From contig OY740824.1 of NCBI GenBank assembly GCA_963514005.1, forward strand, positions 5,456,001 to 5,520,000: a DNA stretch of 64,000 nucleotides. The letters are read 5' to 3'. Below, piece by piece: positions 14,425 to 45,889 of this stretch. The notes below the pieces were generated by a model. It was not told the origin of the DNA and searched no databases. It saw only the letters and a program-made list of their open reading frames with translations. A program made the position numbers and the translations under genes. Source of the DNA: Raja brachyura (Eukaryota). Numbering within the stretch: position 1 is the first letter of the stretch; each line of letters begins with the position of its first letter.

Positions 14425-15288
14425 CTCTGTGCACACATATATCGTGGGCCGTTCGGTTCCAACAAATACGCTCTGGTTTCTGAGCAAACATTACCCCGGT
14501 TACGGTGCCGTTGGCCAGAATGTCTCCACTGCTTTACACCCAGATGAAGGATATTATTCATCAATATTGCAATGCCTGCCATGGGTGGATATCCACTCTC
14601 AGCAGGAACAAACATAGTCTACTCAAGGGGAAGCTCAATGTTTCATTCTCCACGCATTGTTCTGTCCTTGCGCGTGAGAAGCAGTTGCCTTCTGTGGCAT
14701 CTGTGACAGCAGCAACATCGCTGCCGCAGGGACTCCATTGCACCGAGTAAACAGCTGAAGGAAGACCCGTCTCTGCGTGACACAGCTCAGAATCTCAGGT
14801 GCGTGTGTGGCGGTTCCGATATCCTGACAATGTGGCTGCAAGCAGCAATAGGAACAATGAGACATTTATACAATTTATAACTGGGGAGATGTTACCGAGA
14901 GTGACATGACAAAAGCGTTGAATGACTGATGAATTGATAAAGTGAAAATAATTGATTTTATTGATTTACTGCGGGAAGTTTCAGTCAAACAGAAAATAAT
15001 TAAAATAACTGCAATTAACTATATCGACGTAATTCGATGCAAATGACTGCATGTTTTACTGTTCGAAATATACATTTCACGTTAATGAAACGAAGAGTAA
15101 ATGAGTAAAAAACAATGAAAATCACGGCTAAATTTTCAGGAATCCATTATGAGTTATCAGATGGCATTTGATTTCACCATCTGCCACAAGTAAAACGCCG
15201 TGGCGTCTCGCTTCATTTTCAGATCACAGATTTGTAGTCTGACACTGCTTTGTTGATTTGTTGATTTCTGATTGTTCCCGTAACACAG

Positions 15289-16199
15289 CTAATGTGATAT
15301 CCATTGTCATCCTGTCCCGGGGAAAGTGCGGTCTCTCCAAATGTGTATCACGCTATCTTGTGGCCATGGCTGCGGCGGATCTGTTGGTTGCCGTAATTGA
15401 CGTTTTACTTTATCGTATCAATCAGCTATATTTCCCCACAACTTTTCTCTTCATTACTCAAGTCTGCTCCTTCCACCGGGCCCTTAACCACGCAGTCACA
15501 GACATATCCGTGTGGTTAACGCTCTCGTTCACATTTGATCGATATTTGATGATTTGTTGCCACAAGCTGAGATCCAGATTTTGCACTGAGAAAACTGCAG
15601 CCAGGGTTATTGCAACTGTGTGTCCGCTGTTATGCTTTAAAAACATCCCCTGGTACTTTGCATTTGAACCTTCTTTATCAGTACACAACGCAGCATGGGG
15701 CTGTAATGTAAAACAAGAATGCTTCATTGAACCCACATGGATATCATTCAACTGGATCCACAAATGTTTCAGCCCTCTGCTCCCAATGTTCCTGATATCG
15801 CTGCTCAACGCTCTAACAGTCGGTCACATTTTAATGGCCAGTAAAGTCCGCAAGAATCTGAGAGGCAGCAAGAATACTACGAATCAGAATGATGCCGAGC
15901 TAGAAAACAGAAGGAAGTCAATCATCTTGCTCTTTGCAATTTCCGGCAACTTTATTATGCTGTGGATGACGTATTTTATATATTTTCTCTGGACACAGAT
16001 AACAAAGCGGTTTTATTTTACCAGTCTCATTGACCCGTCGCTAATCGCGGACGAAACCAGCTACATGCTCCTGCTGCTGAGTTGCTGTACAAATACGTGT
16101 ATTTACGCGGCAACTCAGTCTAAATTCAGAGGGGAACTGAAGAGCGGGATGAAATATCTGCGGAGAATTATGTCCAAATGTGTTAATGAAGGAATCTAA
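15289..16199 (+). CDS. GPR139/GPR142-like class A orphan GPCR copy A, exon 2 (rest of TM1 to C-terminus; 336 aa when joined to exon 1)
   Basis: Acceptor ...cccgtaacacag|ct; seven-TM pattern with LVAMAAADLL (TM2), TFDRY (DRY motif), P in TM5, FIMLW (TM6) and NTCIY (NPxxY variant); uninterrupted to TAA. Confidence 0.9.
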
Positions 16200-16221: not shown

Positions 16222-16470
16222 TCACAGCAGCATTGTCTCTCCCGTTTCATTTGGTCTTTCAAGCCAGCACCGCCATTCAATGTAATCATGGCTGATCATC
16301 CCCAATCAATACCTCGTTACTGCCTTCTTCCCATATCCCCTGACTCCGCTAAGAGCCCTATTTTTTAAGGGCCCTATCTAGCTCTCTCTTGAAAGCATCC
16401 AGAGAACCTGCCTCCACCGCCCTCGAAGGCAGAGAATTCCACAGACTCACCACTCTCTGTGAGAAAAAGT

Positions 16471-19400
16471 GATTGATTAAGGTTTATTTAAATAGGGACA
16501 GATACAAAAACATAGATACACTTGAAACAGTCATCTGATGTACGCATCATAGCGTTTTTAGCCAAGCCAATTCCTGTCCCTAGTAGGGCTTTTGGTTAAA
16601 AATGATAATACAGATTAACATTATTAAAAATAGGAAAATGGAAATGGAAATTAGATAAAAAATGGAAAAGAGAAAAAGACATACAGAGAGAGCACAGTGT
16701 AAAAACTAAATATGAGAACACGATTGTTGTTGAATTAACCACAATTTTGTGTTCCTTTTGGATGTGACATATGCAGGGATACATTTCAAGTGGTCTAGCA
16801 GTGAGTGCCATAATTTTGTCCCTTTTCCTGAAAAGGCATTTTGAGCAAAAGATGTTCTGCAGAAGGGGATACTACAATTGCCTTTTGACGCTGCCCGGGT
16901 GGTGGATCTGGTACCACTTTGCAGTCTTGTTATTGTTTTGCACAGCAGCTGGAGAGCAGCGCCATTAAGGCACCTGAAGACCAATTTAACTAAATTTAAA
17001 GAAATTAAGTTGGCAAAACGTAGGATCTTATATTTGCTTAGAATTTGACAGTGATGATACCTTATTCTTTATTTGTCCCGGACTTTCAAGGCTCGGTTAT
17101 AGAGAAAACTCCATGGCCTTAATTGATGACTGGTGAGCCTGGGACCATGTGGTTAAGCCATCAGATATATGTGCGAGAATCATAGAATTCATGAAAAGAA
17201 AAGCACAGTTAAAAGTCAAACAGGTTTTTATATCATAAAACAGCCCAAGTTTGCCTTAATGGTTTTACACATTTTCTTAATATGACTTTTAAAGTTCAAC
17301 TGATTGTCTATAATTATTCCCAGATACTTTACTTCAGGTACTTGTTCAATGAGCTCACCATTGATTTTTATATTGAGGAGGTGTGTTTGGGGTAGTTTTT
17401 TGATGGAGAAGCAGAAATAGTTTGTCTTTTTTAGTGTTTAAAGTTAAACAAGATGAGGGCAGCCAAGATGATATTTTGTCTAAGTTGGCATTCAGTTTCT
17501 CAGCCACAAAAGTACAGGTTTCACCAGATGCATATACAACTGTGTCATCTGCACACACTTGTAGACATATATCTGGGCATACATCAGGCAAATCATTGAT
17601 GTAGAGGCTGAAGAGTATAGGTCCCAAGACAGTGCCCTGAGGGATCCCTGTTTCAATTTTTAGAAAATTGGATCTCACACTATTAATTGTAACACATTGT
17701 TCACGGCCATTTAAGTATGACTCAAACCAGGACAATGACTGTTTTGAAAAATTGAACTTAGTTAGTTTTGAAATTAAGGTGTCATGATTTACTGTATCAA
17801 ACGCCTTTTTTAGATCTAAAAATACTCCACCAACCACATTTCCTTTATCAAGTGAATGTTTGATATTTTCGGTTAAAAAACAAGTGGCAGATTCTGCAGA
17901 ATAGTTGCGTCTGAATCCGAATTGCAGGGGATGCAAATAATGGTTTGTCTCAAGGTGGTGCATCAGTTGTTCTGAGACAATCTTCTCCAGGACTTTAGAG
18001 AAAACGGGAAGAAGACTAATGGGTCTATAGTTAGAGTTAATTTTAGTATCTCCAGACTTAAAGAGTGGTATTACTTGAGCAGTATTCCACCCATCTGGGA
18101 ATTGCCCTGATTTAATGGAGATATTAATAAGATCGGTGAGAGGCTGGATAAGAATGCTACTATATTTCATAAGAAAAGCTGTGTCTAGATTATAAATATC
18201 TTTTGAGTAAGTGGTGTTTAGGTCATGTATAGCTTTTAGGTCAGCTGTCTGACCAACCTCCCTGAGCTGAAATGAGCTATCTTGATCGTCGGGCATGTCT
18301 ATTGCTGTTAGGGCAGTATCATTCCTGCAGGAGAAACCTGAGGCAAAGTTTTTAACAGATTCTATGAAGAAATTATTGAACTCGTTTGATACTTGAGTGC
18401 TATCAGTGATTATGTTTTCTCGAATTTTAAGTTTGTATTGGCTTTGGGTGGCGTTAACCTTTGGATTTAATAGGCTATTTAATTGCTTCCAGATACTTTT
18501 GCCATTTCCTTTTGCCTCTGATAGAGCGTGGGTGTAATAATTTGATTTGGACGTTCTGAGTTGTTTAACCACTTGATTACGCAAGACTTGAAATAGTTTC
18601 AGATCAATGTCACTACGAGTTTTGATAAAAAGTTTTCAGGGCATAGTCCCTCCTTTTCATTAGTTTTCGAATGTCAACTTTCATCCATGGTAGCTGGAAT
18701 TTTCTTTGGGATTTTTTTCGCTTTTTAATAAATTTATCAACAATACATCCAATGGTAGACGTTAGCTGATTACAACAGCCGTTTACTTGGTCAAGTAGTT
18801 GGAGCTCATCCCAGTTAACACCCTTTAATTCGTTCTCAAATTGAGTCATTGTTTTACGAGGGATCTCAAGTTTTTAAAAAAATCTGGTTTTGATTTATAA
18901 ACCTTGTCAGTCGTTTCTTTGTGAGTTTTCTTGCTATCAATGTCAAGTTATGATCAGATAGGCCAGTGACTAGATTATACGTTTTTATGATTCTATCAGG
19001 TTTGTTCGTGAAAATTAAATCTATTAGTGTTTGAGTGTTTCTGGTAATACGTGTGGGGGCTTCGATCTTCTGACTGAAGTTATGTTTCGATGTGAGATCC
19101 TTTAGTTTTTTTCTGCAGTTTTTGTCTAACCAATTTGTATTAAAGTCTCCGAAGACAAGTACCTCACTGTTGTGCTTATAGTTCTTCAACAGCGCATCTA
19201 AGAGTTCGCATAGCGCCGCAGTGCACGCAGAGGGAGGGTTGTGTACCACCACGATGTTAAATTGCATGTTTTGTGACAATGTTAAATTAATACATAGACA
19301 TTCAGTAGATATATCAGCAGTCGGGGAAATTTCATTTGCATTGAGTGAGTCCTTAATGTATATCAACACACCCCCTCCCCTTCCCACAGTTCGGTCCCTA

Positions 19401-20485
19401 CTAAAGCATTTATATCCCTGAACATTGATTATGCTGGCTGCGATTTTATCATGCAGCCACGTTTCACTAATACATAGAAAATCAATATTGGACTCGTACA
19501 ACAATATTCTAATCTCATCACACTTGGGAGCTAGGCTTCGGATGTTTAAATGGCCTCCCAAAATACCTTTAGGTTTTACCGCAGGATCCCAAACCACTTT
19601 GGCATGATTAACAGTTTGAAAGAATAGAGTCTGCCTCTGATTCGTCCGTGCTTGTGTTTGGAGTGTTTTTACTTGAGCGGGGACAGCTGATCCTCGCCAG
19701 CGAACGTTGTCAGCTGAGCGGTCCAAGGCACTGGTTAGGCCTACTTTGTTTCCAATCTCCGTCCCGGCCTCCGTCACCTGCACTTCCAGGGCCTTCTGGT
19801 GGTTTCTCTGCCTCTCCAACCCGAGGGGTCCGACGACCGGCGTTGGCCCCAGCCAGCTCCTGGGCAGCGTCGTACCCGGTCCCGAGGCTTGCAGCTGGGC
19901 AGCGGCGTCGCCGGCGCTCGGTACCAGCCCCGGGTCACTCGGCGAGGCGACCACACCTCCCGAAGCTGCCGCCGGGAGGTGTGAGTGATCACCGAGGCTC
20001 TTGGTGTGGCCGACAAGCAGCTGATGCAGCCGCCGACTTCCCTGGCGCTGTTGGGGGCTGCTGCTGCTGCTGCTCCGGCCGGTCGTGCTCGAAGCCATTG
20101 GCGAGCTCGGCGGGCCGGCGGCCGTCCAGTGAAATGTTTTTGAGGAAGCTGAGGGCGGCCTGTCTCCGCCGGGAGTCGGTGCGCCTCCTGACATGTTGGT
20201 GCTGCTGCTGCTGCTGCTGTTGATGATGATGGTAGCGGTGATGCTCCTTCGTGCAGCCGTGCTTGAGGCTACAGAAGCGAAGCGCACCGCCGGCACACGT
20301 AGCGGCCGCCATTGTTCTCTCATCTTGTTCCATCATCTTGTTCCCTCAAACGCCGCATCATTTCAAATTGTTTTTTCCTTTTCCAGGATCGTGAAGAATC
20401 AGAAATATATCAACATAATAAATCTGTTCACTCATTTTGCTGCTGGCAGAATTTTCTCTATCCGCAGCTTTTAGAGCACATTCAC
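16471..20485 (-). mobile_element. Chimeric retro-insertion: CABLES2 5' UTR/exon 1 fused to an L2/Crack-group LINE ORF2 with 3' tail
   Basis: 4-bp duplication AAGT at 16467-16470 and 20486-20489 versus the empty site in unit B; minus-strand 3' end AATAAAcctt(AATC)2; APE motifs (GGHLNIRSL, ISETWL, VFGDFN, SDH) and RT motifs (NYRPISLL, FLDLKKAFDTV, GIPQGTVLGP, CADD) with several frameshifts. Confidence 0.85.
19806..20485 (-). pseudogene. CABLES2: Retroposed CABLES2 5' UTR + exon 1 fragment (ATG at 20312; one frameshift near 20000)
   Basis: MAAATC...RRRTDSRRRQAALSFLKNISLDGRRP matches the CABLES N-terminal signature (human CABLES2 RRRGDSRRRQAALFFLNNISLDGRPP, from recall); WLGPTPVVGPLGLERQR matches the exon 1 end (PTQVPTGLGLDGQRQR); CpG-rich with a His/Gln tract. 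Confidence 0.8.
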
Positions 20486-23400
20486 AAGTCTTTCCTCGTC
20501 TCCGTCCTAAATGGCTTACCCCTTATTCTTAAACTGTGGCCCCAGGTTCTGGACTCCCCCAACATCGGGAACGTGTTTCCTGCCTCTAGTGTGTCCAAGC
20601 CCTTAACAATCTTATATGTTTCAATGAGATATCCTCTCATCATTCTAAACTCCAGAGTGTACAAACCCATCTGCTCCATTCTCTCAGCATATGACAGTCC
20701 CGCCATCCCGGGGATTAACCTTGTCAACCTACGCTGCACTCCCTCAATAGCAAGAATGTCCTTCCTCAAATTAAGGGACCAAAACTGCACACAATACTCC
20801 AGGGGTGGTCACACTAGGGCTCTGTACAATTGCAGAGGGACCTCTTTGCTCATATATTCGATTCCTCTTGTTATGAAGGCCATTCGCTTTCTACACTGCC
20901 TGCTGTACCTGCATGCTTACTTTCACAGACTGATGTACAAGGACACCCAGATCCCGTTGTACTTGCCCTTTTCCCAATTTGACGCCATTAAGATAGTAAT
21001 CTGATATCCTGTTTTTGCTACCAAAGTCGATAACCTCACATTTATCCGCACTAAACTTCATCTGCCATGCATCTGCCCACTGCCCCAACCTGTCCAAGTC
21101 ACCCTGCATTCTCATAGCATCCTCCTCACAGTTCCCACTGCCACACAGTTCTGTGTCATCTGCAAATTTGCTAATTTTACTTTGAATATATTTGATATAT
21201 TCTCGCGTATATCTGACCTATCTCAGTGCAACATCCAAACGATCCTGAAGACTTCTACATTTTCCGTTAGTGAACAAGTCGGCAGATTTAGACTGGGTTA
21301 GATACTGAGCGAGCTGATGGTCACGTGCTAAATCGTTATCATGCATGCACACAACTTAATTAAAAACCTTGTTTGTCGGGGTTCGTGGTCATAGAACCAT
21401 AGAAACATAGAAAATACGTGCAGGAGGAGGCCATTCGGCCCTTCGATCCAGCACCGCCATTCGTTGTGATCATGGCTGATCGTCCGCTATCAATAACACG
21501 TGCCTGCCTTCTCCCCATATCCCTTCACTCCACTAGCCCCTAGAGCTCTATCCAACTCTCTCTTAAATCCATCCAGTGATTTGGCCTCCACTGCCCTCCG
21601 TGGCAGGGAAGTCCATAAATTCACAACTCTCTGGGTAAAAACGTTTTTTCTCGGCTCAGTCTTAAATGACCTCCCCTTTATTCTAAGACTGTGGCCCCTG
21701 GTTCTGCACTCACCCACCATTGGGAACATGTTTCCTGCATCTAGCTTGTCCAGTCCTTTTATAATTTTATAAGATCCTTTTATAAGTTTCTATAAGATCC
21801 CTCCTCATCCTTCTAAACTCCAGTGAATACAAGCCTAGTCTTTACAATCCTTCCTCATATGACAGTTCCGCCATCCCAGGGATCAATCTCGCGAACATTC
21901 GCTGCACTGCCTCAATCACAAGGATGTCCTTCCTCAAATTAGGAGACCAAAACTGTACACAATACTCCAGATGTGGTCTCATCAGAGCCCTATACAACTG
22001 CAGAAGAACCTCTTTACTCCTGTACAGAAATCCTCTTGTTATGAAGGCCAACATTCCATTAGCTGTCTTCACTGCCTGCTGTTAGATAATAATCTGCCCC
22101 CTTCTTTTAGCCTCCAAAGTGGATAACCTCACATGTATCTATATTGCACTGCATCTGCCACGCATCTACCGACTCATTCAACCTGTCCAGATCCCCCTGC
22201 AATCTCCTAACGTCCTCTTCACAGTTCACACTGCCACCCAGCTTTGTGTCATCCGCAAACTTGCCAGTGTTGCTCCTAATTCCCTCTTCCAAATCATTAA
22301 TATATATGGTAAGCAGTTGCGGCCCCAACACCGAGCCTTGCGACACTCCACTCGCCACTGCCTGTCATTCTGAAAAGGACCCGTTCACTCCTAATCTTTG
22401 CTTCCGGTCTGCAAACCAATTTTCCATCCATGTCAGCACCCTACCCACAATACCATGTGCTCTAATTTTAGTCACCAGTCTCCCGTGCGGGACCTTATCA
22501 AAGGCTTTCTAAAGTCTAGATACAGTGCATCCCCTGGCACCCCTTCATCCATTTTACGTGTCACATCCTCAAAAAATTCCAGAAGATTAGTCAAGCATGA
22601 TTTTCCGCTATCCAAATGGCACATTATTACCTCGTTAATAAATGATTCCATCATCTTTCCCACCACGGAACTCAGGCTAACTGGCCTGTAATTCCCCGTT
22701 TTCTTTCTCGCTCCTTTTTTGAAAAGTGGGATAACATTAGCTATTCTCCAATCGGCAGGAACTGATCCTCAATCAATTGAACATTGGATAATGATCACCA
22801 ATGCGTCCATTATTTCGAGAGCCACCTCCCTGAGGACCCTGGGATGCAGACCATCAGGCCCAGGGGATTTATCATCCTTCAGTCCCATTAGCCTACCCTA
22901 TACTATTTCTCGCCTAATGAAAATGTCTTTCAGTTCTTCTACCCCCTGACATTTTCTGTCCTCCAGTACATCTGGGAGATTGTTTGTGTTCTACTTAGTG
23001 AAGACGGATCAGAAGTACCTATTCAACACTTCTGCCATTTCCTTGTTGCCCACAATTATTTCACCCGTGTCTGCCTTCAAGGGACCCACATTTGACTTTG
23101 CTATTCTTTTTCCCTTACCATATCTAAACAAGCTTTTACTGTGCTTTTTTATATTCCCAGCCAGCTTCCCCTTGTACTCCAAGCGGTTCCTTTACCTCGA
23201 GTTCTCTTATCATATCTGATTCATTGGACAACACTAAATCCAGAATTGCGTTTTCTCTGGTCGGCTCCATTACAAGCTGTTCTAAGTATCCATCTCGGAG
23301 GCATTCTACAAACTCTCTTTCTTGGGGTCCTGAAGCAACCCGATTTTCCCAGTCTACCTACATATTGAAATGCCCCATCACCACAGTGGCATTACCTTTG

Positions 23401-45442: not shown

Positions 45443-45889
45443 CGTTGAAACTATAAGAAATAAATCACAGCAGCATTGTCTCTCCCGTTTCATTTGGTCT
45501 TTCGAGCCAGCACCGCCATTCAATGTGATCACGGTTGATCATCCCCAATCAATACCCCGTTCCTGTCTTCTTCCAATATCCCCTGACTCCGCTAAGAGCC
45601 CTATTTTTAAAGAGCCCTCTCTAGCTATCTCTTGAAAGCATCCAGAGAACCTGCCTCCACCGCCCTCTGAGGCAGAGAATTCCACAGACTCACCACTCTC
45701 TGTGAGAAAAAGTCTGTCCTCGTCTCCGTTCTAAATGGCTTACTTCACATTCTTAAACTGTGGCCCCTGGTTCTGGACTCCCGAACATCGGGAATATGTT
45801 TCCTGCCTCTAGTGTGTACCAACCCTTAACAATATTACATGTTTCAATGAGATCACCTCTCATCCTTCTGAGCTCCAGAGTGTACAAGC

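Follow-up and report, generated by a model that had tools for sequence, protein, structure and literature searches.

Several kinds of long interspersed element (LINE) with altered 5′ ends have been described. Law and Burns (2025; 10.1101/2025.02.02.635956) list 17 chimeras of human L1 with gene RNAs, mostly on near-full-length L1, of which 6 end exactly at splice donors; 15 parent genes are without an intronic LINE, and some junctions lack an acceptor or carry short untemplated linkers. The same report covers RAP1GDS1-L1PA2, a retroelement headed by a host first exon, for which the source is intronic and an acceptor is present. Gogvadze et al. (2007; PMC2104539) explained same-orientation fusions of several RNAs within one target-site duplication (TSD) by repeated jumps of reverse transcriptase (RT), and Odon et al. 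(2013; PMC3708506) described a class of 2A-like N-terminal motifs in APE LINEs with a single open reading frame (ORF) from the Rex1, L2, Crack, and CR1 clades. How LINEs gain new 5′ ends is not settled, nor is the route by which exon-LINE chimeras form, whether RT jumping, ligation, or trans-splicing, a choice that Law and Burns leave undecided. Here we analyze a LINE insertion that carries exon 1 of the host gene CABLES2, together with the LINE family to which it belongs. The insertion lies in a stretch of 64,000 nucleotides (nt) from Raja brachyura (assembly GCA_963514005.1, contig OY740824.1, positions 5,456,001 to 5,520,000), called the window below; positions without a contig name refer to it, and its contig is C48 in our numbering.

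The window copy resembles the chimeras of Law and Burns (10.1101/2025.02.02.635956) in having a sense first exon on a near-full-length LINE, one TSD, and no intronic source, so that taken singly the CABLES2 event is of a known kind. In contrast to human L1, however, the present LINE is nonmammalian and its structure is not L1-like. Moreover, chimeras are the rule here among near-full-length copies and are arranged as chains from two to five sources with exon-to-exon joints, whereas the Law and Burns account concerns 5′ pieces from single genes, although its Supplementary Table 4 might include multigene cases. Furthermore, every near-full-length copy in this family, which numbers in the hundreds, shares an inner piece from the host gene NOA1. 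A literature search of limited coverage, and what is accessible of Law and Burns, yielded no multigene chains, no rate of three in four, and no LINE family headed by a host coding exon. The NOA1-headed family is a larger finding than the CABLES2 capture. Its head may represent a chimera from which an active family arose, and also a host protein domain taken over by a LINE, opposite to the usual direction of domestication.

A LINE family headed by NOA1 sequence

Searching the genome with the LINE's 3′ end returned 548 initial candidates, of which 40 were scored, and searching with its 5′ part identified four independent insertions extending as far as the 5′ end, on C48, C20, C26, and C3. In all four, sequence from NOA1 exon 1 stands at the start where the LINE's own N-terminus would be; it keeps the ORF2 frame and meets ORF2 at the identical point. 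Three of them are chimeric with extra host pieces, and the C3 copy has none. The NOA1 piece, which measures ∼300 nt in C20 and C26 and 29 nt in the window copy, corresponds to residues ∼123 to 228, includes a CxxC..CxxC motif that we take to be a zinc finger, and stops inside exon 1, ∼480 nt ahead of the true donor. Beyond the parent gene, no family copy with NOA1 sequence upstream of residue 123 was found, the other matches being short and in a repetitive stretch, and no annotated NOA1-LINE fusion protein was among 22 matches. The NOA1 pieces of the C20 and C26 copies (L021 and L023) begin ∼9 to 13 nt apart; such near-identical starts suggest that the master RNA may have had its 5′ end there or that RT may have stopped there.

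All 12 differences from host NOA1 that are common to the covering copies are synonymous (84 synonymous and 234 nonsynonymous sites; P ∼1e-7, or 6e-6 with transitions only), and the private changes are mixed (five synonymous and five nonsynonymous in the C20 copy, three and four in the C26 copy). The shared synonymous distance is 14%, compared to a copy age of ∼2% (P ∼6e-7), and the piece agrees with this host at three of the four residues that differ in Leucoraja NOA1, the fourth being ambiguous. Because the shared distance far exceeds the copy age, the NOA1 capture predates the burst of copies. The 12 synonymous changes could reflect coding constraint in an active element, or could all have arisen on the host branch, or could come from a donor of another lineage. 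A synonymous excess over the parents is also present in two other captured pieces described below, from a threonyl-tRNA synthetase (ThrRS) gene (six synonymous, three nonsynonymous) and from RAB18 (three and one). The ThrRS counts were made by script, with two of the nonsynonymous changes being repeat-slippage artifacts, and the RAB18 counts by hand. Fast synonymous change on the host side may therefore contribute to the NOA1 pattern. On balance, we favor an earlier capture of NOA1, in frame with ORF2, from which the family arose and whose sequence was maintained by coding constraint.

In other respects the family has the features of the APE-type LINEs of the CR1/L2/Crack group: an APE endonuclease and RT, a simple-repeat tail, frequent 5′ truncation, and a short TSD or none. 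Apart from the C48 paralogs, all 35 of the 3′-end matches that were fetched are 5′ truncated, and tails are (AATC)n or A-rich. The copies are star-like, on average 2.2% from the column majority, with little sublineage structure, and every extant copy is frameshifted at some place other than the junction. Relatives of ORF2 are 45 to 64% identical. None of the 78 ORF2 matches is a named chondrichthyan protein; nearest to it stand teleost proteins, which supply the named entries, and unnamed metagenome contigs. Together with the single burst, this hints that the LINE may have arrived horizontally. Of the 27 nearest protein relatives, the ones whose N-terminus is long often bear a 2A-like motif of the GD(V/I)xxNPGP type before the endonuclease. 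This N-terminal extension, of the Odon class (PMC3708506), is found in the nearest relatives; in the present family the region is gone and NOA1 sequence occupies its place.

Chains of host pieces upstream of the NOA1 head

The extra host material consists of several pieces set end to end. In the C26 copy (L023), the order is the RAB18 5′ untranslated region (UTR) with spliced exons 1 and 2, a 9-nt linker, exon 1 of the ThrRS gene on C41, and NOA1. The RAB18 piece terminates exactly at the exon 2 donor and lacks the 5.1-kb intron of the parent, so its template was RNA. The ThrRS exon ends at CAG|gtaggg. The C20 chain comprises 25 unmapped nt, 41 nt from C14, a 22-nt repeat, 57 nt from C16, AG, 48 nt from C29, a linker, and NOA1. 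Its C16 piece originates from a CpG island and ends 1 nt ahead of C|gtaagt, its C29 piece ends at CAT|gtgagt, and the 22-nt piece, a high-copy repeat (75 matches versus 0 for a control), is presumably a short interspersed element. In the window copy the order is a piece from C5, a stuttered linker, CABLES2 exon 1, AA, and NOA1. The nine mapped pieces derive from eight contigs plus one repeat. Every one is 3′ truncated, and the linkers between them measure 0 to 19 nt.

Five of the nine mapped pieces (CABLES2 exon 1, RAB18 exon 2, ThrRS exon 1, C16, and C29) stop no more than 1 nt from a donor-like GT, where the background rate is 0.014 per end (P ∼6e-8 for a pattern picked after seeing the data). 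For CABLES2 and RAB18, the donors are confirmed by the downstream exons, and for ThrRS by a downstream exon of the gene other than exon 2, which was searched for and not located. Of seven 5′ boundaries inspected, just one follows an AG in the parent, and there the 9-nt linker intervenes. The C20 linker had no match as the start of exon 2 of the C29 gene in the 60 kb searched, and the RAB18-side linker had none as RAB18 exon 3. The CABLES2 and ThrRS pieces start just 1 and 4 nt, respectively, before their ATG.

Flank continuity places the C20 chain within its insertion. The C26 flanks match a multicopy target that is somewhat rearranged on its 3′ side; near-identical copies of this sequence number in the dozens, and many of them lie on C54, C9, and small contigs (L052 to L071). 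We take the C41 gene to be TARS3-like. RARS1 had been considered as the parent of the C41 exon on the basis of a weak PDB match (E = 0.0016) and was rejected, as C11 holds the arginyl-tRNA synthetase N-domain and the downstream part of C41 includes a ThrRS exon. Just downstream of ThrRS exon 1 is a long-terminal-repeat-retrotransposon-like element with zinc knuckle, protease, RT, and RNase H (L078:1058-3242, minus strand). Pfam named none of the genes of the C14, C16, C29, and C5 pieces (109 of 245 candidate frames were tested in one scan). No obvious exon was seen at the 5′ junctions of 42 copies truncated in the LINE body, which were judged by eye and by CpG count, with no flank search. One such copy, L101 (G000:C16:41172100-41177099), has a CpG-rich 5′ flank (GC content of 0.61, 14 CpG in 150 nt), which could be another capture or mere flank.

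CABLES2 exon 1 and its parent locus

The preliminary description of the window, made from the sequence alone, had identified the 5′ part of the insertion as CABLES2 exon 1 beginning with an ATG, and this proved right. The ATG at 20312 is present, and the segment down to 19806 aligns with ∼6% substitutions to a single-copy exon on C22 whose product best matches chondrichthyan CABLES2 (E = 9e-77), with exons 2 onward downstream. The match terminates precisely at the donor GCAGAG|gtgggt, so that the junction coincides with the exon 1 donor of the parent. The claimed in-frame run into the LINE held for the junction itself, which keeps the CABLES2 frame, but the frame opened by the ATG ends after 108 codons with a stop at codon 109. 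Because a 13-nt deletion in the CABLES2 piece is shared by all four paralogs of the insertion, none reads through into ORF2. Changes common to the four relative to the parent number 7 synonymous and 11 nonsynonymous, a pattern that looks neutral by this count, and the CABLES2-carrying copy is dead and probably without function.

Splicing of exon 1 onto a LINE residing in a CABLES2 intron, as had been proposed, was not supported. No match to this LINE was found in 50 kb (C22:34340000-34389999) spanning the entire gene, including its 20.9-kb first intron. No AG acceptor exists at the junction point, judged from three other leader-bearing copies, in which the preceding bases are ...TCATCC. What follows the exon is AA, then 29 nt of NOA1, then the LINE. 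CABLES2 exon 2 begins cag|AAGTAGG, so the AA equals its first two bases, a match with a 1-in-16 probability by chance. As to whether the copy was a one-off or one of a subfamily, a search of the genome with 19800-20485 returned the window copy, three further copies on C48, the single-copy C22 exon, and a separate 154-nt match on C5. The three further copies align to the window copy through their flanks also; the CABLES2-bearing copies are therefore one insertion segmentally duplicated to four, and neither independent insertions with this junction nor a CABLES2-headed subfamily was found. A subfamily headed by a host exon does exist, and its head is NOA1, the only piece with the same junction at independent sites (four insertions).

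The NOA1 head marks a subfamily as the host exon does in RAP1GDS1-L1PA2, and yet the intronic source and acceptor of that case (10.1101/2025.02.02.635956) are both absent here. Of the hallmarks of cis-spliced co-option, the CABLES2 piece shows the donor end and lacks the intronic source and AG acceptor, although the source may have been on a lost allele. The NOA1 piece departs from such co-option in being protein coding in frame and in ending well short of its donor. The window copy, with its 4-bp TSD and empty site, is a same-orientation fusion of several RNAs between direct repeats, as template-switch chimeras are. It differs from the fusions of Gogvadze et al. (PMC2104539) in that their 5′ parts were full-length RNAs, mostly noncoding or short interspersed elements, rather than 3′-truncated pieces, some ending at donors.

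Formation of the chains

We propose that the chains were built by serial RT jumps onto RNA 3′ ends, mainly those of free 5′-exon splicing intermediates, and put the probability of this reading at about one half. An earlier NOA1 capture would have given the master element its head; at insertion, RT would run off its own LINE RNA and jump, repeatedly, to free 3′ ends of nuclear RNAs. In the window copy, such jumps would have placed exon 1 of CABLES2, together with sequence from a third chromosome, on the NOA1-headed LINE. A variant would use 3′-trimmed decay intermediates stalled near exon junctions as templates. We infer the jumping, and the nature of its templates, from the anatomy, parent loci, donor ends, and spliced RAB18 piece that are observed. 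Uniform orientation, the missing acceptors, and the short linkers fit serial jumps as well. At the C5/CABLES2 joint, the stuttered 13-mer is consistent with repeated priming, and star-like copies with little sublineage structure agree with pieces added de novo to a single master. Nascent RNA contains free exon ends at 5′ splice sites as an abundant, prominent end class (10.1101/611020), and jumps of non-LTR RTs from one template to a separate one occur in vitro (PMC8857657).

Several observations weigh against this reading. Four of the nine mapped pieces end away from donors, the C16 and C29 donors are recognized by consensus only, and there are only three chain events. In all three leaders, the ATG frame of the innermost exon meets the ORF2 frame at the junction (1/27 by chance, post hoc; the C29 ATG arises across the junction), which jumping at insertion does not predict and joining before translation does. 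A free CABLES2 exon 1 would also lack the AA that equals the exon 2 start, so this match and the in-frame junctions keep joining at the RNA level alive. The bases that R2 RT adds to cDNA are mostly A, so that T would be expected on this strand, and the authors of that work doubt that jumping makes the human chimeras (PMC8857657).

Joining of host 5′ exons to LINE RNA before reverse transcription, by trans-splicing or RNA ligation, is possible, although we lean away from it. For a LINE without a start codon, only joins that supply an in-frame ATG would make ORF2p and retrotranspose in cis, consistent with the donor ends, with the in-frame inner junctions, and with the window copy, in which no Met precedes the endonuclease motif (the first Met is residue 179 and NIRS is at 86, numbered from the junction). 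Joining of this kind was put forward for human L1 by Law and Burns (10.1101/2025.02.02.635956), and ligation by RtcB was demonstrated for U6/L1 (PMC6789731). However, the LINE side has no AG acceptor, linkers of 2 to 19 nt intervene, and chains reach five pieces, including a repeat fragment and pieces that do not end at donors. A cleaved 5′ exon bears a 3′-OH, which counts against RtcB. That enzyme requires a 2′,3′-cyclic phosphate (PMC6789731). Patching of the pieces by host end-joining repair during sealing of the 5′ junction, through Pol theta-type insertion templated on RNA, cDNA, or distant DNA, is unlikely. The stutter, short linkers, and very short TSD fit alternative end joining, and the C5 and C14 pieces are probably intronic, but the uniform sense orientation where direction is known, the spliced RAB18, and the donor ends do not fit, and extras were seen only on copies reaching the NOA1 head, none being evident in the body-truncated copies by the weak test described above.

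Less probable still are sources that once lay within CABLES2 and other genes, were cis-spliced under the host promoter, retrotransposed, and have since been lost from the population, a form of the model proposed earlier. Under this model the junction would be in frame as observed, and the AA would be accounted for if the source lay 2 nt into exon 2. SVA_F1 is said to have arisen by splicing of the MAST2 first exon to a retroelement. RAP1GDS1-L1PA2 is a precedent (10.1101/2025.02.02.635956), but besides the lack of a family copy and acceptor at CABLES2, none of the matches listed lies near NOA1, RAB18, C41, C16, or C29; several separate lost sources would be required, and the exon-to-exon joints RAB18|ThrRS and C16|C29 would be left unexplained. 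An assembly artifact is hardly credible. The 19803-19806 junction is unbridged by any contig piece listed from four public sequencing runs, with the contigs of run X1 breaking there, and run X6 has the parental C5 locus alone among the contig pieces listed. Nevertheless, the same junctions recur in four paralogs diverged by 0.8 to 4.4%, a TSD and an empty site exist, and contigs of three of the four runs, under three organism labels, cross the C5/linker/CABLES2 joint (20274 or 20284 to 20413).

A bolder possibility, which we hold only tentatively, is that of an exon-snatching LINE. Such an element would have lost its promoter, start codon, and 2A-like N-terminus, would use the NOA1 zinc-finger exon as a selected N-terminal domain of ORF2p, and would have stayed mobile only by repeated borrowing of host first exons (CABLES2, ThrRS, and others), which would provide it with an in-frame ATG and with the promoter activity of CpG islands, the chains being a fossil record of captured splicing intermediates. 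Exon-to-exon joints that have linkers and no acceptor are hard for splicing to produce, so more junctions from related genomes could separate the mechanisms.

Anatomy and surroundings of the window copy

The features of the insertion, which occupies 16471-20485 on the minus strand, are given in Table 1. Its delineation as one insertion within an AAGT duplication, with an empty paralogous unit in the window whose flanks are contiguous, stands as first described, as do the endonuclease (PF03372, E = 6e-14), RT (RVT_1, E = 2e-35), and AATAAA downstream of the exon. The (AATC)n tail is present, reduced to two units, and the leader of about 170 nt is real (173 nt) but is not the CABLES2 5′ UTR. The C5 piece is probably intronic and sense to the flanking exons, which encode EGF repeats. 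We take the older repeat that hosts the AAGT on the 5′ side to be CR1-like.

Table 1. Features of the CABLES2-bearing LINE insertion in the window
Feature	Position	Strand	Remarks
TSD AAGT, 5′ side of element	20486..20489	.	Empty site at 45710-45713; inside older repeat
154-nt piece	20332..20485	-	From G000:C5:103535773-103535926, 92%; end not at donor
19-nt linker	20313..20331	-	Stuttered recopying of last 13 nt of C5 piece
CABLES2 exon 1, ATG to splice donor	19806..20312	-	Indels +15, -13, -25 versus parent; ATG-frame stop 19988-19986
AA dinucleotide	19804..19805	-	Same as first two bases of CABLES2 exon 2
NOA1 exon 1 remnant, 29 nt (HQKALEVQV)	19775..19803	-	Head common to LINE family
LINE ORF2, N-truncated, with APE endonuclease	18866..19774	-	Profile match PF03372
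Remaining ORF2, several frames (frameshifted)	16706..18865	-	RVT_1 at ∼17412-18044
3′ UTR	16471..16705	-	AATAAA 16488-16483; tail (AATC)2
TSD AAGT, 3′ side of element	16467..16470	.	Duplicate of 20486-20489

The C48 copies lie 3.2 to 3.4% from the family majority, compared to ∼2% for other long copies, which hints at an older insertion or a faster-mutating region. The window itself is a mosaic of segmental duplications of 85 to 95% identity. An intronless open frame for a G-protein-coupled receptor (7tm_1; 15243-16199, plus strand) lies 270 nt from the 3′ end of the element, and the surrounding region is probably a receptor gene array.

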